Below are positions 28,130 to 45,117 of a DNA stretch of 45,145 bases, one piece after another. The notes under the pieces are model-generated. The model did no database searches. It was given only the letters and a program-made list of their open reading frames with translations, and was not told the origin of the DNA. The position numbers and the translations under genes are program-made. Position 1 is the stretch's first letter. The number at the start of each line of letters is the position of its first letter. This stretch comes from a virus, in IMG/VR virus record IMGVR_UViG_3300045988_035404. The stretch is one strand, 5' to 3'.

Positions 28130-29401
28130 TTAGTTTATTTTTTCAGCTTTCAGTCCAGTTTCGTCTTCCCAACGCTTGATGGTTCTTTCAACGTATAACG
28201 GGTCAAGTTCCATCCCGTAGTAAATGCGCTCGGTTTTTTCACAAACCATAAGCGTCGAACCTCCACCATTAAAACTATCGAGCACGCGCTCTCCCTTTTT
28301 ACTAGAATTGAGAACACATCTAGCAATCAACTTCAACGGTTTCATAGTTGGATGGATATCATTTCTTACTGGTTTGTCTTCGTAGAAAACACTTGTCAGG
28401 CTACCCTCTTGCATTGTCTTGATATAAGCAATAAGTTCGCCTTTTGTCATTTCTTTCAAGTTGTCTTCGTCTTCTTCAATCACAGTAGCCAAAGAGCGAT
28501 TATCTACAAAATAATGCGACGCTCCATCTTTCCACCCATAGAGACACGGTTCATGTTTCCACTGGTAGTCTTGTCGACCTAAGACGATGCTGTTTTTTAC
28601 CCAGATAATATTCTGTTTTAGCAACCATCCAGTCTCTTTTACTGCAGCTCTAAAATTCAACCCTTCTGAATCTGCGTGCCAGATATAAAAGGCGCCTCCC
28701 GGCTTCAAGTGCTTGTCGGCAACCGAAAATGCGTCTTTCAAAAATTGACGGAAACTGACGTCATCCATGCTGTCATTCATAATCGTCATAGCTTCTTCAG
28801 TCCCCCCCTCATACGCTACGTTGTAAGGTGGGTCTGTGACATATAAATCTATCTTGTTGCCGTCTACGAGTTCCTCCATGTCAGCTATTGACGTGCTATC
28901 ACCACACATTAAACGGTGCCGGCCTAATTGATATATGTCGCCGTACTCAACCGCTGACGTTTGGGTGTCTTGTTCGTTTATTTCTTCTGCATCTTCGGTA
29001 TCCAACTCTTCGTCTTCAAAATCATCCAAGGTGTAATCTTGATCAGTAAAACCAAAGAGTGTCATATCAAGATTGTCGACACTATCAATCTCGCTCAATA
29101 ATAGCTCAATATCCCACTGAGCTATCTCGGCCACTTTATTGTCTGCTAATCTGAATGCCTTGACTTGTTCTTCTGTCAAATCGTCTGCGATGATAACTGG
29201 AACTGTTTTTAGTTTTAGTTTTTTAGCAGCCTTCCAGCGCGTGTGCCCATTGATGATCTCACCGTCTGACGTTGCCACGATTGGCACCTTAAAACCAAAT
29301 TCACTGATGGAATTAGCAACCGGCCCAACTGCTTCATCGTTATTTCTTGGGTTGTTTTCGTAAGGGGTTAGCCACCCTAACGGCTTATCATAGATTTGCA
29401 T
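28130..29401 (-). CDS. ParB-like nuclease domain fused to a DNA methyltransferase (N6A/N4C, PF01555-type)
   Basis: N-terminal ParB-N motif (PYENNPRNN...INGHTR). DPPY motif, then the FNGGGST AdoMet motif C-terminal to it (beta-class order). Confidence 0.85.
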   Translation of the reverse strand: MQIYDKPLGWLTPYENNPRNNDEAVGPVANSISEFGFKVPIVATSDGEIINGHTRWKAAKKLKLKTVPVIIADDLTEEQVKAFRLADNKVAEIAQWDIELLLSEIDSVDNLDMTLFGFTDQDYTLDDFEDEELDTEDAEEINEQDTQTSAVEYGDIYQLGRHRLMCGDSTSIADMEELVDGNKIDLYVTDPPYNVAYEGGTEEAMTIMNDSMDDVSFRQFLKDAFSVADKHLKPGGAFYIWHADSEGLNFRAAVKETGWLLKQNIIWVKNSIVLGRQDYQWKHEPCLYGWKDGASHYFVDNRSLATVIEEDEDNLKEMTKGELIAYIKTMQEGSLTSVFYEDKPVRNDIHPTMKPLKLIARCVLNSSKKGERVLDSFNGGGSTLMVCEKTERIYYGMELDPLYVERTIKRWEDETGLKAEKIN

Positions 29402-36392: not shown

Positions 36393-37088
36393 CTATCCCT
36401 TTCGTTGGTAGATTTGCCCTTGAATGTCCATAGTCACCACGTCGAATCCTGGCACCAGCAACTCATGGAAATCATTAAGTTTGTATTTTCCAAGATAATA
36501 CTTGGCTACTGTTTCGACTGCTTGACCAGTAATTAGAGCTAATTCGTTGATTAGCTGCATGATAGCGTCATGCTGTTCGTTGCTAATGAAATTAGGTTGT
36601 GGGTTATTTTGTTGCTGGGGTTGTGCTTGCGGTTGCTGATTTTGATGCGGTTGTGGGCTGTGAGGTTGGTTTGGTCTCAAACTCTCCTCTGCCACTTCGA
36701 AGTGGTCCACATCTTCCTCGCCAATTGCGAATAGTGCTTGCAAGGCGTACTTCCCGGCGTATGATTGTACGGCTCCTACCCATTGCGGTTCATTCATTTG
36801 CTTTAAGTCTCCGTTGCGAGTTTTTAAAATCGGTACAGGAGATAATTCTGCGAACGCCACTGCTTGCTCTTTCTCCTCTCGGTTAGATGCCGTCGCAATC
36901 GCTTTGATAAAAGTCTTCCCAGAAAATTCGACTAGATCATAGTTGACTACAACGTTCCAATTTGATTTCAAACTTTTAAAGGCGTTGTAAATATCCTCGA
37001 CGTGCCTTGAAGCGTACTTGGCAGTCCCTTCTTTCTTTTTTTCAAGCTGCATTCGTTGCTGCAGCTCTGTGAATGTCATTTCTTCCAT
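36393..37088 (-). CDS. erf: ERF-family single-strand annealing recombinase
   Basis: The motif QWVGAVQSYAGKYALQALFAIGEEDVD, followed by a Gln/Pro-rich linker. Confidence 0.65.
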   Translation of the reverse strand: MEEMTFTELQQRMQLEKKKEGTAKYASRHVEDIYNAFKSLKSNWNVVVNYDLVEFSGKTFIKAIATASNREEKEQAVAFAELSPVPILKTRNGDLKQMNEPQWVGAVQSYAGKYALQALFAIGEEDVDHFEVAEESLRPNQPHSPQPHQNQQPQAQPQQQNNPQPNFISNEQHDAIMQLINELALITGQAVETVAKYYLGKYKLNDFHELLVPGFDVVTMDIQGQIYQRKG

Positions 37089-37202
37089 GTCATATCCTTT
37101 TTAATACCCCTAATTCTCAAATTTTGGGGGGGTTATTTGCCGTTTTACCGTTTCTCTAGTGTAATTGTGCCACTAGATTATTTAGGACGGTTACAAGCGA
37201 TT

Positions 37203-37385
37203 TTAGAGCCGTTTTTGCCCTTTGACTTTTTTTAGGTGCCAAAGCTCCTTTTTGAGCTTGGTGTTTTCTTGGGCTAGTGACAAGATTCTGTCTTGCTGAC
37301 TATTGATAATCTTGCCCAACTCACGACCTAAATTCATGTACTTGTTCCGCCAACGGCTGTCAACCTCGTATGTTTCTTGTTCCAT
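37203..37385 (-). CDS. Small coiled-coil protein, 60 aa
   Basis: ATG start. Intergenic spacing is consistent with a real gene. Confidence 0.5.
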   Translation of the reverse strand: MEQETYEVDSRWRNKYMNLGRELGKIINSQQDRILSLAQENTKLKKELWHLKKVKGQKRL

Positions 37386-37418
37386 GTTTAATGCCTACCC
37401 TCCCACCACTGCTATTAA

Positions 37419-37739
37419 CTAATTAATTATTTTTCTCAAAAATGCTTTGATTTCGTCTCTTGTAACTTCGTTACGTCCTGTGCGTTCGAAGTCGGAGCCG
37501 TCAAGTTTAGTTACATTGTATTCGGCTTCCACATTAAGCACTTCGCAGCCAAACGTTTCAGCAAGCTTGTCAAGATCGTTTTTTTGTTTTTCGTATGGTT
37601 CGAGAGGCAAGTATAGTGCATCTCTCAAACGGTCAGTAAATGTTGCTGTAAATACTAGACTTCCTTTGTCTTTGTAACTTTCAAGAAATCCATCTTTCTC
37701 AGCGCTGTAAAATACGACTTGTTTGTTATTTTCTTTCAT
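37419..37739 (-). CDS. Hypothetical early protein, 106 aa
   Basis: Its ATG (37739) lies 3 nt downstream of the upstream gene's stop (37742-37744). Confidence 0.65.
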   Translation of the reverse strand: MKENNKQVVFYSAEKDGFLESYKDKGSLVFTATFTDRLRDALYLPLEPYEKQKNDLDKLAETFGCEVLNVEAEYNVTKLDGSDFERTGRNEVTRDEIKAFLRKIIN

Positions 37740-37741
37740 GA

Positions 37742-38248
37742 TTACTCCTCTTGTTCTAATGTTTTAACTAAATTTACGTAAGCTTCGTAATGCTTGCCGC
37801 TATCTTTGCTGTCTTGATATGCTTTTTTGATAAGTTCTTCGCCTGTTCCATAGAAACAGCCAACTTTCCACATCTTATTTGATCGTGTGTAAGTGAAGTA
37901 CCGGCCACTAGACCAGTTGTTTTTGAAAACGATGTAGTCATTTAATTTTGAGACCTCAGCGTCACCAGAGACCTCAGCGTTACCATAGACCTCAGCGTCA
38001 CCATAGACCCTTGCGTCACCATAGACCCTTGCGTCACCAGAGACCCTTGCGTTACCAGAGACCCATGCGTTACCAGAGACCCATGCGTTACCAGAATGGG
38101 ATAGGTTTTCTTCTTTTTCAACATATCCGCCTAACTCGCCTTTTTTGACATTGTCGAACGAAATCAAGGCTTTGATTCTGAATAGCTCGATTCCGAACAT
38201 TGTGATTTTAGACGATAAATCTAATTCAAATTTCTTAATCATTTTCAT
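37742..38248 (-). CDS. Hexapeptide-repeat (left-handed beta-helix-like) protein, 168 aa
   Basis: Eight consecutive G[ND]A[WRE]V[SY] hexapeptides. The start overlaps the adhesin stop by 14 nt. Confidence 0.75.
   Translation of the reverse strand: MKMIKKFELDLSSKITMFGIELFRIKALISFDNVKKGELGGYVEKEENLSHSGNAWVSGNAWVSGNARVSGDARVYGDARVYGDAEVYGNAEVSGDAEVSKLNDYIVFKNNWSSGRYFTYTRSNKMWKVGCFYGTGEELIKKAYQDSKDSGKHYEAYVNLVKTLEQEE
37952..38095. repeat. 18-bp tandem repeat x8 (coding the hexapeptides)
   Basis: Units of GACC(TC/CT/CA)(A/T)GCGT(C/T)ACCA(G/T)A were read directly. Confidence 0.9.
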
Positions 38249-39974
38249 CCTCGCTGTATTTCTTGAATCCGAGAGTCAATGCGGTGATGCCTGTTGCAAT
38301 CACCACCAAGCCTAGAGTTGACATGATGCCTTCTTTTTCGCCAGTGTTTGGCAAAGTAGCGCTGTAAGTAGGTGTATTTACAGCCTCTTTTGGATCAGAA
38401 TCAAAGTTATAAGATACTGTGGTAATTTCCTTTTTGGCTTTCGGAGCGTCTACGGGCTTGCTAGGCGCCTTTTTAGGTGTCGCTGGAATTTCAAGCTCTG
38501 GCAAGTCCAAGATAGGCGCATCGTTTGGAATTACCCCGCCTTCAAACGGTGGGAGTTCTCTTACTTCGGGAATTCCAGGAATGCCACCTTGGAATTCAGG
38601 TTTGTGGTGTACCGGTGCTTCATTTGGTACTGTTCCGCCATTCCATTCTGGCAACTCTCGCACCTCTGGAATACCAGGGATGCCGCCTTGGAATTCTGGG
38701 ATATCTACTTTTGGAGCTTCACGAGGAATTTCAAAAGTTGGTTCCGGTTTGTTTTCACCAGACGCATCACCGCGTCCGCCAACAAGCTGCACTTTAGAGC
38801 TTGATTTAGCCCCAGCGTCTACAGCTACCAACTCAGCCTTGTTTGTTGGGTTGGTACTATCTTTAACCGCTTTCTTAAGTTTAGTTTGGTAATCGATGTA
38901 CAAGATACGGTTAAACTGTTTGAATTTAGCGTCGAAGCCATCAGCTCTAACATTCCAGCTTTCAAGGTAATCCTTAGCTGAAAAGTCAATGCCAGTCCAA
39001 GCAAGTGGGTCTTCAACAAAGTAGATGTTTTGAGAGCCTTCTACAAACTCTTGATTATCAGACCAAGTGTCCTTCAATTTCGCATAATTCAAGACTTGAC
39101 GGGCAGTGTTCAAACGCAAGGTCCAGTTAATGATTTGAGGGTCCTTTTTATTTTGACTGCCCCATTTAGACAGGAGTTCATTGCTTGGAAGTGGGCCTTC
39201 TTCTGCAATAGTGAAGGTTTTAACAGTGCCGTTGAAATTAACTGTCACTGGTTTACCCGGTTCGACAATATCCAACCACTTAGCGTCAAATTTCAAGCTC
39301 ATTTTCTTGTTCAATGGGTTGTTTTGGAAGTAATTGTTAAAAGTGGTTGTGATTTTGCGAGCTTGTGCATCAGCGTTAGCCTTACCAACGATGTTCTCGT
39401 TGTTGTAAACATCGAAGTCAAAGCTGGTCTGCAAACCGATTTCTTTAGGTAGTTCAGTAACTACCTTGTCCCCCTCGTTGATAGCCATATCATTGGGGAA
39501 GTTGATATCTTTGTATTCAACCTTGAAAGGTGAGTATTTGCCGTTGCCGTTAGGGAAGTCTACTTGTACGTTAGGGTTTTCAACATTGATTGTGTCGCCC
39601 TCTTTAGTAACCGTAGTAGGTGCCGCTGGGGTTTCAGCTACTGGTTGAGCTACTTCTGTAGTTGTTACTGGTGCTTCTGTAGCAACAACTGGAGTTTCAG
39701 CAATCGGTTGAGATTCCACTGGAGCTGGCGCCAATGCTTTTGGTGTTTCTACTGGTGCCACTGTTTCGCTAGGTGCCACCGTCACGTTTCCGGCATTATC
39801 AGCCGTATAGACGTTAGACACGGCTAGCTGAGTGTCTGCCACTGGTTGCGTTGTTTCGTCTGCTGACACTGCACCAGCTCCAATCAATAGAGCGATAGCA
39901 AGCGCCAATGTTCCACAAAGCCCGTAGGCTTTAGATACAGTGAATCCTGGTTTTGCAATTGTTTGTGCTTTCAT
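38235..39974 (-). CDS. LPXTG-anchored surface protein, MSCRAMM/collagen-binding-like adhesin
   Basis: The ATG at 39974 has an AAGGAG SD. Signal peptide ends ..LLIGAGAVSADE. It has a Pro/Thr/Ala-rich spacer, a TYTFTDYV-like motif (ITTTFNNYF), two ~33-aa EFQGGIPGIPEVRELP repeats, and LPNTG plus a TM helix plus a charged tail. Confidence 0.85.
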   Translation of the reverse strand: MKAQTIAKPGFTVSKAYGLCGTLALAIALLIGAGAVSADETTQPVADTQLAVSNVYTADNAGNVTVAPSETVAPVETPKALAPAPVESQPIAETPVVATEAPVTTTEVAQPVAETPAAPTTVTKEGDTINVENPNVQVDFPNGNGKYSPFKVEYKDINFPNDMAINEGDKVVTELPKEIGLQTSFDFDVYNNENIVGKANADAQARKITTTFNNYFQNNPLNKKMSLKFDAKWLDIVEPGKPVTVNFNGTVKTFTIAEEGPLPSNELLSKWGSQNKKDPQIINWTLRLNTARQVLNYAKLKDTWSDNQEFVEGSQNIYFVEDPLAWTGIDFSAKDYLESWNVRADGFDAKFKQFNRILYIDYQTKLKKAVKDSTNPTNKAELVAVDAGAKSSSKVQLVGGRGDASGENKPEPTFEIPREAPKVDIPEFQGGIPGIPEVRELPEWNGGTVPNEAPVHHKPEFQGGIPGIPEVRELPPFEGGVIPNDAPILDLPELEIPATPKKAPSKPVDAPKAKKEITTVSYNFDSDPKEAVNTPTYSATLPNTGEKEGIMSTLGLVVIATGITALTLGFKKYSEDEND

Positions 39975-40033
39975 GGTATAATCTCCTTGATAATTAATTT
40001 TGTCTTGCATGGGCCCTAACCCATGCTTTTTTT
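39953..40033 (+). ncRNA. Candidate short cis-antisense unit opposite the adhesin 5' UTR
   Basis: TTGCAA (39953-39958), 18 nt, TGGTATAAT (39974-39982), then the perfect hairpin GCATGGG/CCCATGC (40007-40026) plus T7 (40027-40033). Confidence 0.45.
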
Positions 40034-40330
40034 AGTGCTCTCAACGTGCACCCAATGCCCCATCGTGTCGTCTTTTTCAATGTTTTATTAGACTTTTTGG
40101 GGAAGATTAGGAAAAAAGTAATTTAGTAAAGTTTTTTTGGGGAAAAATTATGGGTATAAGTTACACTCCACGATGAGGCCGTGGCTGCACGCTGAAAAAA
40201 TTGACGTTATTTTATGTACTTGTTCTTGAGTCGTTCGCTCTTTTCCTCTGGCGTTTCCACCCACTCAAAGAACGGCTCTGGTTTCGGTTGTTTCTTTTTG
40301 AAAAGTTTTTCTAGTAGATGTTTCAAATCA

Positions 40331-40471
40331 TCACCCCACTAGCTGATCTAATGGCAATCCGTGGTCGGCGTTAAATTCTCTGACCTTTTCATCAATCATG
40401 CGATGTGGTTTTACTTCGAAAACTTCTACTTCTTCTTGCTTCTTTGACCAAATCCAGTTTAAAAATTTCAT
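40331..40471 (-). CDS. Possible 46-aa early protein, not in the ORF track
   Basis: AAAGGAG SD 8 nt before the ATG. Hand translation gives MKFLNWIWSKKQEEVEVFEVKPHRMIDEKVREFNADHGLPLDQLVG. Confidence 0.5.
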   Translation of the reverse strand: MKFLNWIWSKKQEEVEVFEVKPHRMIDEKVREFNADHGLPLDQLVG

Positions 40472-40504
40472 TGTTGTTTTCTCCTTTGGTTTTTTGATTT
40501 TGTT

Positions 40505-40711
40505 TTAGAATACATGGACACCACGCTCAGCCCATTTGTTACGTAAACGATTTTGAGCGTCCCCGTTATATCCGCAGATATGGAACGCCAAGCCAAAGTT
40601 TTCTTTGCTATGGCGTTTAGCCACAATTTCATCCTCAAAGATTTCGACGAATTTTTTAACTTCGTCTAGGTCTTCGCTGCATGGGTAGAATAACCAGTCG
40701 TTATCTACCAC
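40505..40711 (-). CDS. Hypothetical early protein (N-terminus uncertain)
   Basis: The track start is GTG. The frame is open a further ~36 codons upstream behind an AGAGAGG SD, but with no canonical start codon there. Confidence 0.5.
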   Translation of the reverse strand: MVDNDWLFYPCSEDLDEVKKFVEIFEDEIVAKRHSKENFGLAFHICGYNGDAQNRLRNKWAERGVHVF

Positions 40712-40900
40712 AACGTGCCAGTTGTCACCTAGAACTGTCTGGATTTTCTTATATTCAAATTTAGCCGTTTTGATTACCTCTCTTATTCTTCTGACTACTA
40801 CTGTATTGTTATCAGTTAGTAATTATTTCTAGTTAGTGCCGGTAGGCTCTAGATTGTTGTAAGTTAGTACTTGTTGTATAGTTAGTATTTATTAGTGCCC

Positions 40901-40967
40901 AATTTTACACATTGCAATTTTACACATTGCAATTTTACACATTGCAATTTTACACATTGCAATTTTT
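40901..40967. repeat. Iterons: 15-bp unit AATTTTACACATTGC x4 plus a partial copy; putative origin of replication
   Basis: Four perfect contiguous copies, then an inverted partial copy at 40972-40982. Flanked by GTTAGTA/GTTAGTG repeats (40810-40890). Confidence 0.7.
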
Positions 40968-40981
40968 GGGAAATGTAAAAT

Positions 40982-41344
40982 TTACGTTGTGCTATCTGTG
41001 GATAACTCTTTCTCAAGATGTCCCATCAGATACTCTAGGTAGTTGTCTGTTATAGGAACATCTGAGAAAAATCTGTGTACCTCACTCCCTTTTCCTCTAC
41101 CTAAGCTACGCTTAATCACTCTCATATATCCTGCTTCTTCTAAGATTTTGAAATGGCTATCAACGGTAGTGCGGCTTATGCCTAGCCGTCTTGCGATTTC
41201 ATCAGGATATACAACCCAATCGGGCTTATTGGTCAAGATGACCGTTAAAATGCCTATTGTTGCTGGTTTCAACCGTTTGTCTTGAGTAAAAGCGTTATTG
41301 ATAGATGTGTAATTTTCGTTGGCGTTCCTGATTATGTATTGCAT
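40982..41344 (-). CDS. Winged-helix DNA-binding protein, RepA_N-like replication initiator candidate
   Basis: The pattern NAFTQD..L...IGILTVIL....W..YPDEIARRLGISRTTVDSHFKILEEAGYM...R..GRGKG resembles RepA_N. Iterons lie directly 3' of it. Confidence 0.55.
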   Translation of the reverse strand: MQYIIRNANENYTSINNAFTQDKRLKPATIGILTVILTNKPDWVVYPDEIARRLGISRTTVDSHFKILEEAGYMRVIKRSLGRGKGSEVHRFFSDVPITDNYLEYLMGHLEKELSTDSTT

Positions 41345-41353
41345 ACCTCATAG

Positions 41354-41506
41354 TTAAGCCCCTTCCTGTAGCTTTTCTTTGTGAAAACCTATGATGATGT
41401 CATAGTAAGCGTGGCCGCTTGGAATGACATATTTAGTTAAATCATCAACTCTGGAACCGTCTGCCATAATGTTGATTATGGTGGGTTCCCATTTTTGTTT
41501 TTTCAT
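41354..41506 (-). CDS. Possible 50-aa early protein, not in the ORF track
   Basis: Hand translation gives MKKQKWEPTIINIMADGSRVDDLTKYVIPSGHAYYDIIIGFHKEKLQEGA. The SD is weak. Confidence 0.45.
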   Translation of the reverse strand: MKKQKWEPTIINIMADGSRVDDLTKYVIPSGHAYYDIIIGFHKEKLQEGA

Positions 41507-41568
41507 GGTACAATCTCTTTAGTTTAAATTTTCTATCGGTCTGACTCTGGCAGGGGTCAGCCTTTTTT
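41486..41568 (+). ncRNA. Candidate short cis-antisense unit opposite the early leader
   Basis: TTCCCA (41486-41491), 17 nt, TGGTACAAT (41506-41514), then the hairpin GGTCTGAC/GTCAGCC (41538-41562) plus T6. Confidence 0.4.
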
Positions 41569-41785
41569 GTTGCCTTAACGACACTGGAGAACTAGCGAGG
41601 ACTTTGAATTTATTTATTTTTAGGAGTTTTTATAAATCAAATCGTTTCACGCTAATGGTATTAGTATTGCTTACGCTTCAACAGATATGCCCCGCTAGCT
41701 CACTAGTGCCGTCAAGGTGTCGATTGCAACTGCATTATTTTTATTTAACTTTCGCTTAACTAAAACTTTTGCGGTTGCTTTTTCT

Positions 41786-42019
41786 TTAATGTTTTTGTTG
41801 CGTTTCGGGAACAGTTTGTTTAAAAAAAATACCGATTTCATCCTTACTGTACCCTAGTAAGCCGGCAAGTGTGATAAGTTCGTCAGCGGAAAATGAGATT
41901 TTCCCATTCTCTCTCTTATTATACTGATCGCGAGCCAAACCCATTAGTTCAGCCATTTTCGCTTGAGTATAACCTTTCGCTACTCGTTCAGCTCTCACAC
42001 GAAGCAAATCAACTTTCAT
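41786..42019 (-). CDS. Cro-like XRE-family HTH regulator
   Basis: HTH segment GYTQAKMAELMGLARDQYNKRENG. Divergent from the repressor gene. GGAGG SD. Confidence 0.85.
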   Translation of the reverse strand: MKVDLLRVRAERVAKGYTQAKMAELMGLARDQYNKRENGKISFSADELITLAGLLGYSKDEIGIFFKQTVPETQQKH

Positions 42020-42070
42020 AGATTACCTCCGTTTATTTAGTTTTCATTACTTGTTCCTTAGAACAATTAT

Positions 42071-42099
42071 AGTATACCTAACGCGTTCCCATTTGTCAA
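42071..42099 (-). promoter_or_regulatory. Early lytic promoter TTGACA-17-TATACT
   Basis: -35 at 42099..42094 and -10 at 42076..42071. A GGGAAC operator half-site (42085-42090) lies in the spacer. Confidence 0.65.
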
Positions 42100-42145
42100 C
42101 GATAGAATAAAAAAAATATGAAAAAAGTTTATTTCTGGGAACACC

Positions 42146-42174
42146 TTGTTTATTTTCGGGAACTGTTGTATAAT
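42146..42174 (+). promoter_or_regulatory. Repressor promoter TTGTTT-17-TATAAT
   Basis: -35 at 42146-42151 and -10 at 42169-42174. GGGAAC sites lie at 42137-42142 and 42158-42163. Confidence 0.6.
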
Positions 42175-42205
42175 GTTCTTACTATTAAGTAAAAGGAAAA
42201 AGCGC

Positions 42206-42556
42206 ATGAGAAACAACGAGGAAATTATTTTACTAATAAAAAGCTATTTAGATAATAGTTCTATGTCGATGTCTGAATTAGCTGCAAAAGCGGGGGTTTC
42301 AAAATCGACTTTATCAAGATATCTTTCTGGCAGTCGGGTGTTCCCGCTGAATAAAGCGGATGATTTCGCTAGTGCTCTAGGTTTGACAACGGAACAATTT
42401 TTGAATGTAACACCTAGCCCGACAGATACTGCTTCAACCGACATCGATAACATTATAGAAAACGCTATGATGTTCGATGGTAAACCACTGACTAGTGATG
42501 ATAAACGTGCCATTCGTGGCATAATCGCCGGTTACATGAATAGCAAGGAGAATTGA
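42206..42556 (+). CDS. Phage repressor, XRE HTH (ImmR-like, no S24 peptidase domain)
   Basis: The ATG at 42206 has an AAGGAAA SD; the track TTG extension is rejected. HTH segment MSELAAKAGVSKSTLSRYLSG. Confidence 0.85.
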   Translation: MRNNEEIILLIKSYLDNSSMSMSELAAKAGVSKSTLSRYLSGSRVFPLNKADDFASALGLTTEQFLNVTPSPTDTASTDIDNIIENAMMFDGKPLTSDDKRAIRGIIAGYMNSKEN

Positions 42557-42561
42557 TACTT

Positions 42562-42936
42562 ATGGAGAAAGAATTGCTTGAGCAGTTCAACGTGTCTCTT
42601 TGTGAGTTTAGTTCTAACGAGTGGCCCAGAAACGGCTTTATCGACCCAATAAATAGGGTCGTTTACATCAACGGGGATTTAGCCCCAGAAATACGTTTAA
42701 AGGTCATTTTACATGAATTGGGACACCTAGAGCACAACTCTAAAGACTATGAGCGATTGCATGAGAAATACGAAGCTCAAGCTAATAAAAAAATGATCCA
42801 TGAGTTGTTGAAAAATGAAAATCTTGATGATTTTAATTACTTACACTTTATGGAAAAATATAATCTCACCACAATTTGTGATGAGACGTTTGTAAAAGAC
42901 GAATATCTAAAACTAAAGGAGATTGAAAAATGTTGA
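42562..42936 (+). CDS. immA: ImmA/IrrE-family zinc metalloprotease (anti-repressor protease)
   Basis: HELGH motif (ILHELGHLEH). The ATG at 42562 lies 11 nt after AGGAG. Directly follows the repressor gene. Confidence 0.8.
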   Translation: MEKELLEQFNVSLCEFSSNEWPRNGFIDPINRVVYINGDLAPEIRLKVILHELGHLEHNSKDYERLHEKYEAQANKKMIHELLKNENLDDFNYLHFMEKYNLTTICDETFVKDEYLKLKEIEKC

Positions 42937-43535
42937 GTAAATGGAAGAATTTGAAACGCTGGCAAAAATGGGCGGTTGTGCTCGTCTGCTTGGCTGTCCT
43001 TGGGAAAGTTTTTGAAATAACTGGACTTGCACCGAAAACGGAAACAGAACCAGTCAAGACAGTTCAAACAGCTTCGTCTTCTTCAAAGACAAAACCTAAA
43101 GCTAGTAAGCCGTCTAGCAGTGCCAAAGCGTCAAGTTCAAAGAGTGAGAAAGCGACTCCGAAAGAATCAAGCTCAGAACCAAGCTCATCGGAAGATAAAC
43201 TAAAAGATATTACCGAGGGTCAAATGGGTAGCTTTATTGACTACTTCAAGCAAGATTTGACTGATAAAGGCCTGGATATTAGTACATACAGTTTCTATAA
43301 CCGTGACACAATTTTATATATGACTGTGCCTAACGAATATAAAACTTATAGCAAAGCTGATTTGCAGAATTTTGCTGATGGCATGCTTGCCAAAGAGCAT
43401 GAAGCCTTCAACGTCTGGGCTGCAATCAACAATGTCAATTATGAGCGTTATCCGATGTTTCACATTAAAACAGATGACGGCAATGCTCTAGCTAGCCAAA
43501 AACTTGACGGAACAATGAAAGTCAAGGTTAAATAA
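42930..43535 (+). CDS. Membrane-anchored Ser/Lys-rich surface protein; putative superinfection-exclusion factor
   Basis: N-terminal TM helix (WAVVLVCLAVLG), a low-complexity linker and a ~110-aa C-terminal domain. The position between repressor and integrase is typical of sie/ltp genes. Confidence 0.55.
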   Translation: MLSKWKNLKRWQKWAVVLVCLAVLGKVFEITGLAPKTETEPVKTVQTASSSSKTKPKASKPSSSAKASSSKSEKATPKESSSEPSSSEDKLKDITEGQMGSFIDYFKQDLTDKGLDISTYSFYNRDTILYMTVPNEYKTYSKADLQNFADGMLAKEHEAFNVWAAINNVNYERYPMFHIKTDDGNALASQKLDGTMKVKVK

Positions 43536-43674: not shown

Positions 43675-45117
43675 ATGACAATGCATAAAGTTGCTATCTA
43701 TGTCCGAGTGTCGACCACATCGCAAGCTGATGAGGGCTACTCTATCGACGAGCAAAAAGCAAAGCTGACAAGCTACTGCGACATTAAGGACTGGAATATT
43801 TACGAGATATACACAGACGGCGGTTTCTCTGGATCTAACACGGAACGCCCAGCACTAGAGCAGTTGATAAGAGATGCAAAGAGAAAACTGTTTGATACTG
43901 TCCTAGTGTATAAACTAGACCGTTTGAGCCGCAGTCAGAAAGATACACTCTATCTGATTGAAGATGTATTTCTGGAGAATGATATAGAATTTGTCAGCTT
44001 ACTCGAAAACTTCGACACCTCAACGCCGTTTGGTAAGGCAATGATTGGGCTCCTCAGCGTGTTTGCCCAGCTTGAAAGAGAACAAATCAAGGAACGCATG
44101 CAGTTAGGCAAGCTGGGGCGGGCAAAGTCCGGTAAGTCGATGATGTGGTCAAAGACATCTTACGGCTACGATTATGTCAAAGAGACCGGCACGCTCTCAA
44201 TCAACCCATATCAAGCTCTAATCGTCCGAAAGATGTTTGAATGGTATTTATCGGGTATGTCGATAACCAAGCTCAGAGATACCCTCAATGAGCAATATGG
44301 GCAAGATAAAGAGTGGAGCTATAGAACAGTGCGGGCTATCCTGTCGAACCCGGTATATTGTGGATATAACCAATTTAAAGGACAGATATTCCCTGGTACT
44401 CATGAGCCTATCATATCCGAGGAAGATTTTAACAAGACGCAAGAGGAAATCAAAATAAGGCAAAGGACAGCCGCCCAGCGATTCAACCCTCGGCCATTTC
44501 AAGCTAAATACATGCTTTCTGGTATAGCTCAATGCGGCTATTGTTCCGCCCCTCTTGCTATCAAGTTAGGCATGAAACGGAAAGACGGCACTCGCTTAGT
44601 CAAATATGAGTGTAAGCAGCGACATCCACGAAAAACCAAGGGCGTCACTGTTTATAATAACAATGAAAAATGCGACTCTGGATTTTACTTCAAAGACGAT
44701 ATAGAGCACTTCGTCCTAACTGAAATCAGCAAGCTGCAAACTGATTCAGACTATATCGACAAGCTATTTTCAAACACTGACAAAGAGACTATAGACCGTG
44801 ATAGTTACCAGAAACAGATTGATAATCTGACCGCTAAAATTAGCAGGCTTAATGATCTATACATCGACGATAGGATTTCACTAGAGGAATTACAAAAACG
44901 GTCAAGCGACTTTATGGCAGAAAGAACAGCTCTTGAAAAAGAACTAGACGCTGACAGCTCTATCAAAACCGTAGAACGAAAAAAAGACATTAGACGGGTA
45001 CTTGATACCAAGGATATATTTAGCCTTGACTACGAGCACCAAAAAGCCATAGCACGCGCCTTGATAAGCAAGGTTCGAGTGACTAGTGAAACTATCGTTA
45101 TTTTATGGAAATTATAG
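43675..45117 (+). CDS. int: Large serine recombinase (integrase)
   Basis: N-terminal resolvase catalytic motif VAIYVRVSTTSQ..GYSIDEQ, a recombinase domain, a Cys-rich zinc ribbon (CGYCSAPL...YECK) and a C-terminal coiled coil. 480 aa. Confidence 0.92.
   Translation: MTMHKVAIYVRVSTTSQADEGYSIDEQKAKLTSYCDIKDWNIYEIYTDGGFSGSNTERPALEQLIRDAKRKLFDTVLVYKLDRLSRSQKDTLYLIEDVFLENDIEFVSLLENFDTSTPFGKAMIGLLSVFAQLEREQIKERMQLGKLGRAKSGKSMMWSKTSYGYDYVKETGTLSINPYQALIVRKMFEWYLSGMSITKLRDTLNEQYGQDKEWSYRTVRAILSNPVYCGYNQFKGQIFPGTHEPIISEEDFNKTQEEIKIRQRTAAQRFNPRPFQAKYMLSGIAQCGYCSAPLAIKLGMKRKDGTRLVKYECKQRHPRKTKGVTVYNNNEKCDSGFYFKDDIEHFVLTEISKLQTDSDYIDKLFSNTDKETIDRDSYQKQIDNLTAKISRLNDLYIDDRISLEELQKRSSDFMAERTALEKELDADSSIKTVERKKDIRRVLDTKDIFSLDYEHQKAIARALISKVRVTSETIVILWKL

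Follow-up and report, generated by a model that had tools for sequence, protein, structure and literature searches.

Results and Discussion

The gene and its product

The stretch of DNA analyzed here is the whole of IMG/VR virus record IMGVR_UViG_3300045988_035404 (45,145 nt; hereafter the window, to which coordinates refer unless another record or contig is named). It belongs to a temperate siphophage of the S. salivarius/thermophilus type, and the host is Streptococcus salivarius, a mouth bacterium. Its minus strand carries a gene for a surface protein with an LPXTG sorting motif, which an initial annotation had proposed to be an MSCRAMM-like adhesin encoded inside the early lytic operon (Table 1). 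The list of open reading frames (ORFs) contains a minus-strand ORF at 38235..40010, whose ATG at 40010 would give a product of 591 aa. This start was rejected because the 12-codon extension is not conserved as coding sequence among related loci. Comparison with 22 related loci showed that ATG 39974, which has AAGGAG upstream, is the start common to homologs. The product is then 579 aa, exactly as first annotated, and in its translation ITTTFNNYF (39327-39353), GGRGDASGE (38754-38780), and LPNTG (38340-38354) also lie precisely where they had been placed. Two tandem repeats of ~33 aa are likewise present, slightly shifted from the span first given for them (38515-38712); 23/33 residues are identical between the two units (counted by eye on the translation), and a 16-aa core, EFQGGIPGIPEVRELP, occurs twice without change (38649-38696 and 38550-38597). 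The corresponding 99-nt DNA copies were not reported by Tandem Repeats Finder, the DNA being too diverged; out-of-frame DNA slices of the repeats are identical at 63/99 nt. The 14-nt overlap claimed between the stop codon and the next ORF holds for the first ATG of that ORF (38248), but is only 8 nt if the start is the homologous one (MIKKFEL, ATG 38242).

Table 1. Features of the window bearing on the LPXTG gene, its leader, and its surroundings.
Feature	Position	Strand	Basis and remarks
Coding sequence, 579-aa LPXTG surface protein	38235..39974	-	Stop codon 38235-37; ORF list, homolog-supported start, Pfam/NCBIfam/Foldseek matches, dN/dS 0.15
Sec signal peptide, aa 1-38	39861..39974	-	Hydropathy peak 2.18 at aa 18-36; A38 and D39 invariant (31 sequences)
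Disordered Pro/Thr/Ala/Val-rich N-terminal region, N1-like	39618..39860	-	T 18%, A 17%, V 16%, P 14%; pLDDT < 50; length varies among homologs
First Ig-like domain, N2-type, Big_8	39207..39617	-	Holds KITTTFNNYF (39327-39356); pLDDT about 85; dN/dS 0.10
Second Ig-like domain, N3-type, Collagen_bind	38787..39206	-	Strand-rich model, pLDDT 55-80; dN/dS 0.18
Gly-rich motif QLVGGRGDASGE, directly 3' of second domain	38754..38789	-	Candidate lock/latch; contains coincidental RGD
Two 33-aa proline-rich SIALI-17-type repeats, probable wall-spanning stalk	38499..38696	-	NF043031; exact 16-aa core twice; copy number varies among homologs
Cell-wall sorting signal	38238..38354	-	LPNTG 38340-38354, hydrophobic segment, KK and acidic tail
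Conserved structured RNA leader, ~230 nt	39975..40205	-	5' arm 40169-40198 pairs with 3' arm 40038-40067; hairpin 40007-40026; Shine-Dalgarno AAGGAG
Antisense promoter-like site and intrinsic-terminator-like hairpin	39953..40033	+	TTGCAA-18-TGgTATAAT 39953-39982; hairpin + T7 40007-40033; pattern scan
PR-like early promoter	42071..42099	-	TTGACA-17-TATACT, 11/12 match; just upstream of cro-like gene 41786-42019
168-aa YdcK-type beta-solenoid repeat protein, overlapping downstream gene	37742..38248	-	Pfam B_solenoid_ydck 35.9 bits; phrog_7964
106-aa gene, phrog_2486	37419..37739	-	Cluster c20; directly 3' of LPXTG gene in 10/21 loci retaining downstream sequence
120-aa winged helix-turn-helix gene	40982..41344	-	
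cI-like helix-turn-helix gene	42146..42556	+	Lysogeny module
ImmA-like protease gene	42553..42936	+	Lysogeny module
201-aa gene	42930..43535	+	Lysogeny module; phrog_9505
Serine integrase gene	43675..45117	+	Lysogeny module

Protein architecture

The protein contains, in order, a signal peptide, an N1-like region, N2-like and N3-like domains, a Gly-rich segment, proline-rich repeats, the LPXTG motif, a transmembrane (TM) segment, and a tail. As judged from the sequence and a structural model, it appears to have the complete MSCRAMM layout. Pfam assigned Big_8 to residues 156-232 (E 3.8e-10) and Collagen_bind to residues 267-383 (E 8.4e-11), both above the gathering cut-offs. The NCBIfam equivalog model NF043031, "SIALI-17 repeat-containing surface protein," a name that close homologs bear in NCBI, matched three repeat stretches at 48.6 bits against a cut-off of 30. 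Homologs numbered at least ~8000 in each of two large protein searches, many of them on contigs of 38-45 kb. Since the profile scores exceed their cut-offs and homologs number ~8000, the features of the protein are not due to chance. A PDB sequence search with the full protein gave no match at E <= 1, so that only profiles or the fold reveal its homology to solved adhesins. No PHROGs family matched the protein, and there was no YSIRK match in Pfam.

An alignment of 31 homologs (44-90% identity) served as input for an AlphaFold2 model and for all conservation counts on the protein. In the model, residues 120-396 form two all-beta domains (predicted local distance difference test, pLDDT, about 85 and 55-80) and the rest is disordered. 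When the model was compared with the PDB by Foldseek, every match from rank 1 to rank 39 (E 3e-13 to 6e-10, probability 1.00) was a bacterial cell-wall adhesin of the MSCRAMM N2N3/Cna type, including SdrC, SdrD, SdrE, SdrG, ClfA, ClfB, FnBPA, Bbp, UafA, Cna, and RspB, with Candida Als adhesins further down the list. The alignments to N2N3 regions extended over ~300 columns at low TM-scores (0.32-0.42), which come partly from the inter-domain angle and the moderate confidence of the second domain. In a viral structure library, the sole strong match was a metagenomic "Clumping factor [Siphoviridae sp.]." The fold of the A-region, one of the points on which the initial annotation had said its proposal could fail, is thus adhesin-like (E down to 3e-13). 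Taken together, Big_8 and Collagen_bind, the two-domain beta model, and 39 best PDB matches that are all adhesins make it very probable that the protein is an MSCRAMM-type cell-wall adhesin.

The individual elements also fit this identity. The motif K[IV]TT[TV]FN[ND]YF is nearly invariant among homologs and lies inside the Big_8 (N2-type) domain. The likeness first noted between ITTTFNNYF and the TYTFTDYV signature therefore holds as regards conservation and location in the first binding domain, but equivalence of the two is by resemblance only. The Gly-rich unit is conserved as QLVGG[RK]GDAxGE, with Q396, L397, V398, G399, G400, G402, A404, and G406 invariant, and by analogy with Clf/Sdr proteins it may act as a lock or latch. 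An integrin-type RGD was rejected, in line with the early suspicion that this triplet was coincidental: R401 is replaced by K in 12/31 homologs (KGD), and one homolog has KGN. The signal peptide, the Pro/Thr/Ala/Val-rich spacer, and the TM helix with its charged tail had all been correctly recognized. Cleavage of the signal peptide is predicted from the AXA rule to occur between VSA38 and DE. At the C terminus, a 22-residue hydrophobic stretch (hydropathy 2.01) is followed by KK and then by acidic residues; LP.TG, G545, and KK are conserved among the homologs.

Distribution and selection

Orthologs were found in nine phage records, representing seven distinct phages. In S. salivarius these are YMC-2011 (81% identity; Ssal_phage00024, YP_006561239.1), Javan536 (68%), Javan534/535/539 (62%, annotated "sialidase"), and SA-TP2 (61%, gp23); Javan311 of S. 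mitis (52%) and Javan371 of S. parasanguinis (46%) are more distant. The "sialidase" label, carried for instance by the Javan535 ortholog (L002 4713-6434), was rejected as unsupported, the 62%-identical window protein having no sialidase domain (Pfam, with only the window protein scanned). The label may stem from the repeat name "SIALI-17" or from an error. Eighteen IMG/VR loci were recovered by protein search and 70 further by the DNA pattern of the leader described below. The GTDB data, with one genome per species, contained 17 loci, and in 17/17 ORFs homologous to phage genes stood on both sides; no non-prophage chromosomal copy occurred among these species-representative loci. The GTDB hosts are nearly all Streptococcus (one salivarius-group species, S. 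parasanguinis, S. gingivalis, and unnamed species), and three loci are from bins of metagenome-assembled genomes or isolates labeled uncultured bacterium, Carnobacterium sp., and Streptococcaceae bacterium.

Over 16 loci, the pairwise ratio of nonsynonymous to synonymous substitution rates (dN/dS) was 0.15 overall, 0.10 in the N2-like domain, and 0.18 in the N3-like domain; dS was saturated, at about 1.3. The ORF was intact at every examined locus that contained the whole gene. The adhesin family is therefore old, selected, and phage-resident, which does not fit a one-off capture, and it resides almost only in phages of oral streptococci. The initial annotation had called an adhesin in a phage early operon unusual. 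In fact, nearly all S. salivarius-type prophages have the gene, which was annotated as early as in YMC-2011.

Two more remote relatives turned up in tblastn searches. An adhesin relative with 35% identity lies in MW057932.1 (11423-12655), labeled Campylobacter phage CJLB-5; a sortase substrate is odd in a record labeled as a phage of a Gram-negative bacterium. N2N3-like regions with 26% identity occur in unannotated Listeria phage contigs (OR848115.1, OR846734.1, and related ones).

Genomic position and transcription

In S. salivarius-type phages, the gene always stands between small early genes and the replication/recombination module. The block upstream consists either of a winged helix-turn-helix (wHTH) gene with ORFs of 39-50 aa or of Ant and HTH genes. 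The module downstream is of several types: Erf-SSB-RusA, as in the window; replisome organizer-DnaC-RecT; Gam-Sak4-helicase-primase; or a helicase/primase set. Two helicase genes flank it in S. mitis Javan311, and in S. parasanguinis phages it follows SSB and initiator genes. Thus, on three different phage backbones it is always found among early/replication genes and on the same (early) strand. In the window it is on the early-lytic strand, ~2 kb from the switch, and in related loci the next gene follows after gaps of 2-37 nt or overlaps.

Consensus scans indicate how the gene would be transcribed. The likely source of a transcript reaching it is the PR-like promoter at 42099-42071, the single strong sigma-70-like site on the minus strand. 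Only two other minus-strand promoter-like sites were found, both 9/12 matches, one upstream of the PR-like promoter (42389-42360) and one inside the LPXTG gene (39296-39267); none lay between the PR-like promoter and position 39296, within the LPXTG gene, and no minus-strand terminator-like site lay between 42071 and 36900. The scans detected no promoter or terminator flanking the gene on the minus strand, such as would let a moron be expressed from a repressed prophage. Scanning and inspection by eye of the leader loop for a sigma-70 promoter revealed nothing conserved across leader variants. Moreover, only 8-10 nt separate the stop codon of the upstream gene from the 5' arm of the leader, which means that transcription of the leader has to start further upstream; a sense-strand leader next to this stop codon is the best available evidence for co-transcription. 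Together with the absence of an own promoter or terminator in the scans and the abutting or overlapping next gene, this supports the earlier proposal that the LPXTG gene is co-transcribed with early genes.

The gene had also been placed between the origin/initiator genes and the recombination module. This is plausible, and Erf, SSB, and RusA do lie downstream, but the upstream wHTH has only N-terminal initiator similarity, matching the N-terminal third alone of replication-initiator/DnaD-like PHROGs. Downstream of the wHTH gene are a perfect 15-bp x 4.5 tandem repeat (CAATTTTACACATTG; 40900-40966) and a 17-bp x 1.9 repeat (40854-40887). The wHTH gene and the repeats form an iteron/ori-like arrangement in a phage in which no helicase, primase, or organizer gene was recognizable.

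On the 3' side, the 168-aa beta-solenoid protein is weakly bactofilin-like and contains an 18-bp x 8 repeat at 37950-38095 (GNAWVS/GDARVY...). An obligatory pairing of the LPXTG gene with the 106-aa gene was rejected, given that the two are adjacent in only 10/21 loci and that the 106-aa gene also occurs without the LPXTG gene. Apart from this region, a gene beside the packaging genes (28130-29401, minus strand) encodes a 423-aa protein in which a DNA methyltransferase (phrog_498, 4.9e-151) is fused to an N-terminal ParB-like nuclease/partition domain.

The LPXTG gene is not in the att-proximal slot, as had been stated; a different gene, at 42930-43535, holds that slot in the lysogeny module. 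Its 201-aa product, encoded between the ImmA-like protease and the serine integrase in the classical slot of superinfection-exclusion (sie) and moron genes, starts with a hydrophobic anchor that has no canonical lipobox, continues with a linker rich in Ser, Lys, and Pro, and ends in a globular part. It had no Pfam or PADLOC match. From these features it is a candidate surface-exposed protein expressed in lysogeny.

Superinfection exclusion or receptor masking has also to be considered for the LPXTG protein. Anchored at the surface, it might shield or bind the wall polysaccharide receptor or trap phage, protecting the cell and sparing progeny from debris. The family is surface-located, phage-encoded, and diverse (45-90% identity), and streptococcal phages do encode surface Sie proteins such as Ltp (PMC3952083). 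However, no PADLOC defense model matches the LPXTG protein or four accessory neighbors, the protein is not a lipoprotein and is encoded outside the lysogeny module, where the membrane-anchored 201-aa protein occupies the slot, and its fold is that of host- or ligand-binding adhesins. In addition, dN/dS values of 0.10-0.18 in the binding domains give no sign of an arms race. We consider a role in exclusion improbable.

A structured RNA leader and a possible antisense unit

The LPXTG gene is the first ORF behind a conserved leader in S. salivarius-type phages. In the leader, a 27-bp stem closes a loop of 101 nt that is rich in AT and poorly conserved; an A-run, a 7-8-bp hairpin, and the Shine-Dalgarno sequence follow. 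The leader is kept throughout the related loci, also in those with a different upstream gene. The fold of the window leader has a minimum free energy of -63.9 kcal/mol (z = -4.87). In an alignment of 17 leaders, 98.1% of cells were paired versus 31-47% when the partners were slid, eight pairs had double-sided changes, and the covariation score was reached by 0/500 shuffles. RNAalifold returned the same structure from 19 leaders, four of them without a following LPXTG gene, with 34 pairs, of which nine were compensatory. Since the pairs include 95 G·U cells versus 3 A·C cells, the structure is selected on the sense strand, i.e., as mRNA, and a DNA palindrome or an antisense-strand structure was rejected for the long stem; this test is also compatible with a strand-specific single-stranded DNA structure, in which G·T is tolerated. 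A search of 37000-42500 against Rfam at E <= 1 gave a chance isrG match only and nothing for the leader. The long imperfect duplex may be an RNase III-type processing or stability element, and the hairpin a 5' stabilizer.

The leader is not confined to phages with the adhesin gene. It also occurs in S. vestibularis SVep1, in contig L027, and, heading the replication module, in S. thermophilus phages, its positions including L143:3495-3698, L144:3487-3691, and L145:3404-3584. The leader RNA is a separate lead on control of the replication module in streptococcal phages, among them S. thermophilus phages of industrial importance.

The reverse complement of the spacer between Shine-Dalgarno sequence and ATG forms a plus-strand extended -10 element (TGnTATAAT or TGnTATACT), mostly 20-24 nt from the hairpin and its T7 run. 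Of 78 distinct leaders, 77 retain TGnTATA(A/C)T and all 78 the hairpin. Such an arrangement could possibly yield a cis-antisense RNA of ~45 nt over the 5' untranslated region, and the site is compatible with a cis-antisense regulator. The initial annotation had assigned the gene its own antisense unit. A promoter-like site and a hairpin are indeed present and conserved, but they belong to the leader and also precede genes other than the LPXTG gene (SVep1, L027, and S. thermophilus phages).

Presence, absence, and probable loss of the gene

The LPXTG gene is absent at exactly this point, between conserved flanks, in SVep1, L027, P7954, and MM25, which is the presence/absence pattern of a moron. 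SVep1 and L027 lack exactly the LPXTG ORF: in SVep1 the leader is followed by a YdcK beta-solenoid gene homologous to window 37742-38248, and in L027 directly by the 106-aa gene. In virulent S. thermophilus Brussowvirus/Moineauvirus phages, the gene after the leader is Gam-like and is the first of the replication module. Short repeats (TCATGAAA) stand at both ends of the LPXTG ORF.

Two of these phages carry what resembles a deletion scar. In P7954 and MM25, the Shine-Dalgarno sequence and ATG of the leader open mini-ORFs of 14 and 11 codons, respectively (L144:3689-3735 and L145:3582-3627). The first 27 nt of the P7954 mini-ORF match the start of the LPXTG allele of L011 (MKTSKITT...) at 24/27 positions, and the first 17 nt of the MM25 mini-ORF resemble the same allele start by eye. 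The rest of the MM25 mini-ORF region corresponds (26/31 identities) to a spacer, TGAAGTGGTGGGAGGGTAGGCATTAAATATG, that six loci with the LPXTG gene have behind the stop codon of that gene. The simplest reading of these sequences is a precise deletion of the adhesin gene in dairy phages, not an insertion in oral ones; the gene looks ancestral and lost in the former. In S. thermophilus, reductive evolution has removed surface adhesins and, in several strains, sortase, which would fit the loss of a gene for a sortase substrate.

These absences bear on two further explanations. Precise presence/absence at the ORF boundaries, with TCATGAAA repeats at both ends, together with dispensability in SVep1, L027, and S. 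thermophilus phages, would be expected of a host adhesin gene gained by illegitimate recombination and carried as passenger or decaying cargo, with no selected role in the phage. However, the ORF is intact wherever the whole gene is present among examined loci, dN/dS is 0.15 at saturated dS, the 17 GTDB loci include no non-prophage chromosomal copy, and the position of the gene is conserved. Passive cargo is thus largely refuted by the selection analysis, and we hold it to be most improbable.

The second explanation centers on the lytic cycle of the phage. The adhesin would be displayed early, so that the doomed cell sticks to streptococci, biofilm, or mucosa and progeny are freed beside new hosts, or debris is retained, with no direct gain to the lysogen. 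This would account for a gene that lies in the early/replication transcript of three phage backbones, that in S. salivarius-type phages follows the replication-module leader and is not part of the lysogeny module, that has no detected promoter of its own, and that is strongly conserved within phages only. Yet virulent S. thermophilus phages, which rely wholly on lytic transmission, deleted the gene, SVep1 and L027 manage without it, and sortase anchoring would require continuing wall synthesis within a short latent period. On balance, this explanation appears unlikely.

Proposed function

The account that we favor, and consider reasonably probable, is that temperate siphophages of the S. salivarius group carry it as an accessory gene that functions, encoding an MSCRAMM-type adhesin that is expressed by early read-through and alters the adhesion of the carrier cell. 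Read-through from the PR-like promoter would give a transcript with the structured leader, and the adhesin would be translated from the leader's Shine-Dalgarno sequence. Since the scans gave the gene no promoter or terminator of its own and it is the first ORF behind the leader, we propose that the protein is made whenever the replication module is expressed. The double-stranded stem and the hairpin of the leader may serve as a site of RNase III processing or stabilization, possibly with the short cis-antisense RNA, and would probably set the amount of protein. By comparison with the family, the precursor would be exported by Sec and cleaved after VSA38, host sortase A would cut LPNTG between T and G and join the protein to peptidoglycan, and the proline-rich SIALI-17 repeats would cross the cell wall. 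The two Ig-like domains may then hold a peptide or protein ligand in an inter-domain trench, by dock-lock-latch or collagen hug.

The host appears able to carry out the anchoring step. S. salivarius SrtA is functional and needed for adhesion, with srtA deletion lowering adhesion 7.5-fold (PMC5847202), and adhesion of this species depends on sortase-anchored proteins (PMC5847202, PMC5826255); the host should thus be able to anchor the LPXTG protein. In strain JIM8777, an SrtA-anchored adhesin that is neither CshA nor of the serine-rich repeat (SRR) type has been inferred for strain-specific co-aggregation with F. nucleatum (PMC5826255). The 68%-identical copy of Javan536, a prophage of JIM8777, is a candidate for that adhesin. 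The most likely benefit would be altered adhesion or aggregation of the carrier cell in an oral or gut niche, that is, lysogenic conversion via basal or induced expression, or via expression in a subpopulation of cells.

Lysogenic conversion is the weakest step of the favored account, and several observations speak against that account or parts of it. The position of the gene, within the lytic early operon and outside the lysogeny module, counts against its being strongly expressed while a lysogen is quiescent. Promoters and terminators were called by simple consensus scanning, which could miss weak promoters. The second domain is modeled at moderate confidence only, with the Gly-rich putative latch disordered, and the sorting signal, present by motif, is borderline by hidden Markov model, scoring 14.3 with the LPXTG model TIGR01167, just under the cut-off of 15.9. 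Finally, all scar-bearing phages are also virulent, so that the milk niche is confounded with lifestyle.

A more specific and rather doubtful possibility is that the adhesin is a deliberately timed product: the leader, heading the replication module in Aliceevansviridae-like phages of streptococci, and the conserved short cis-antisense RNA would together gate it to cells with a replicating phage genome, whether induced, newly infected, or carrying a plasmid-like prophage. Tethering of such cells to mucosa, biofilm, or partner bacteria (e.g., F. nucleatum with JIM8777) would favor phage transmission over host fitness.

S. salivarius, a dominant pioneer, colonizes the mouth and small intestine of humans. 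In oral streptococci, an entire family of MSCRAMM-type adhesins is carried by prophages, under strong purifying selection and with early/replication wiring, and on the simplest reading it was deleted in phages of S. thermophilus, a dairy descendant. Should the protein indeed change adhesion or co-aggregation, differences in colonization between strains would in part be due to their prophage content, and display of the adhesin would be tied to replication of the phage and not to lysogeny.

Comparison with known systems

The LPXTG protein has the same overall architecture as known MSCRAMMs (ClfA/B, SdrC/D/E/G, FnBPA, Bbp, Cna, and Ace, and RspB of Erysipelothrix), and it has a motif resembling TYTFTDYV in the first domain and a Gly-rich segment, a candidate latch, after the second. 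However, sequence identity to these proteins is only 11-16%, the stalk consists of proline-rich SIALI-17 repeats and not of SD or B repeats, and the gene is phage-encoded within an early operon, not chromosomal.

Among phage-encoded surface proteins, the best-known LPXTG protein to bring about lysogenic conversion is SasX, a precedent for the window gene in concept; SasX is much smaller and is not known as an N2N3 MSCRAMM. SasX/SesI is an LPXTG surface protein of a phiSPbeta-like prophage in S. aureus and S. epidermidis and is linked to colonization (PMC7047976, PMC7285666). As for phage "morons," the window gene resembles them in presence/absence but, in the consensus scans, has no promoter and terminator of its own. 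PblA and PblB are virion tail proteins encoded by late genes, which reach the surface after lysis, bind choline residues, and are not sortase substrates, whereas the window protein is an LPXTG-anchored product of the early operon. These proteins of S. mitis phage SM1 are cited, in the reference list of PMC6813308, as a case of a temperate phage of an oral streptococcus altering host-cell binding. Ltp of the S. thermophilus temperate phage TP-J34 is a surface-exposed superinfection-exclusion lipoprotein of the lysogeny module that is expressed in the lysogen (PMC3952083). Like the window protein it is phage-encoded, surface-exposed, and from the same phage family. Unlike Ltp, the window protein has no lipobox (its predicted cleavage site is VSA/D and its anchor LPXTG) and is encoded in the early lytic operon. 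The putative antisense unit over the leader resembles P22 sar and plasmid countertranscripts, by analogy only.

The gene itself is already known: GenBank annotations of it date back to YMC-2011, and an NCBIfam model covers the family. In the literature searched, which left out the main YMC-2011 paper, we found no functional study of the adhesin family and no description of its phage-only residence, of its constant location after a covarying leader that S. thermophilus phages also have, or of the deletion scar. The closest counterparts of the window gene are the orthologs of YMC-2011, SA-TP2, and Javan534/535/536/539, which have 61-81% full-length identity and occupy the same slot, from the switch/anti-repressor genes to the replication module. 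Compared with these published copies from S. salivarius phages, the window represents a new allele, in a phage that combines Erf/SSB/RusA with a serine integrase and has an extra beta-solenoid gene behind the LPXTG gene.

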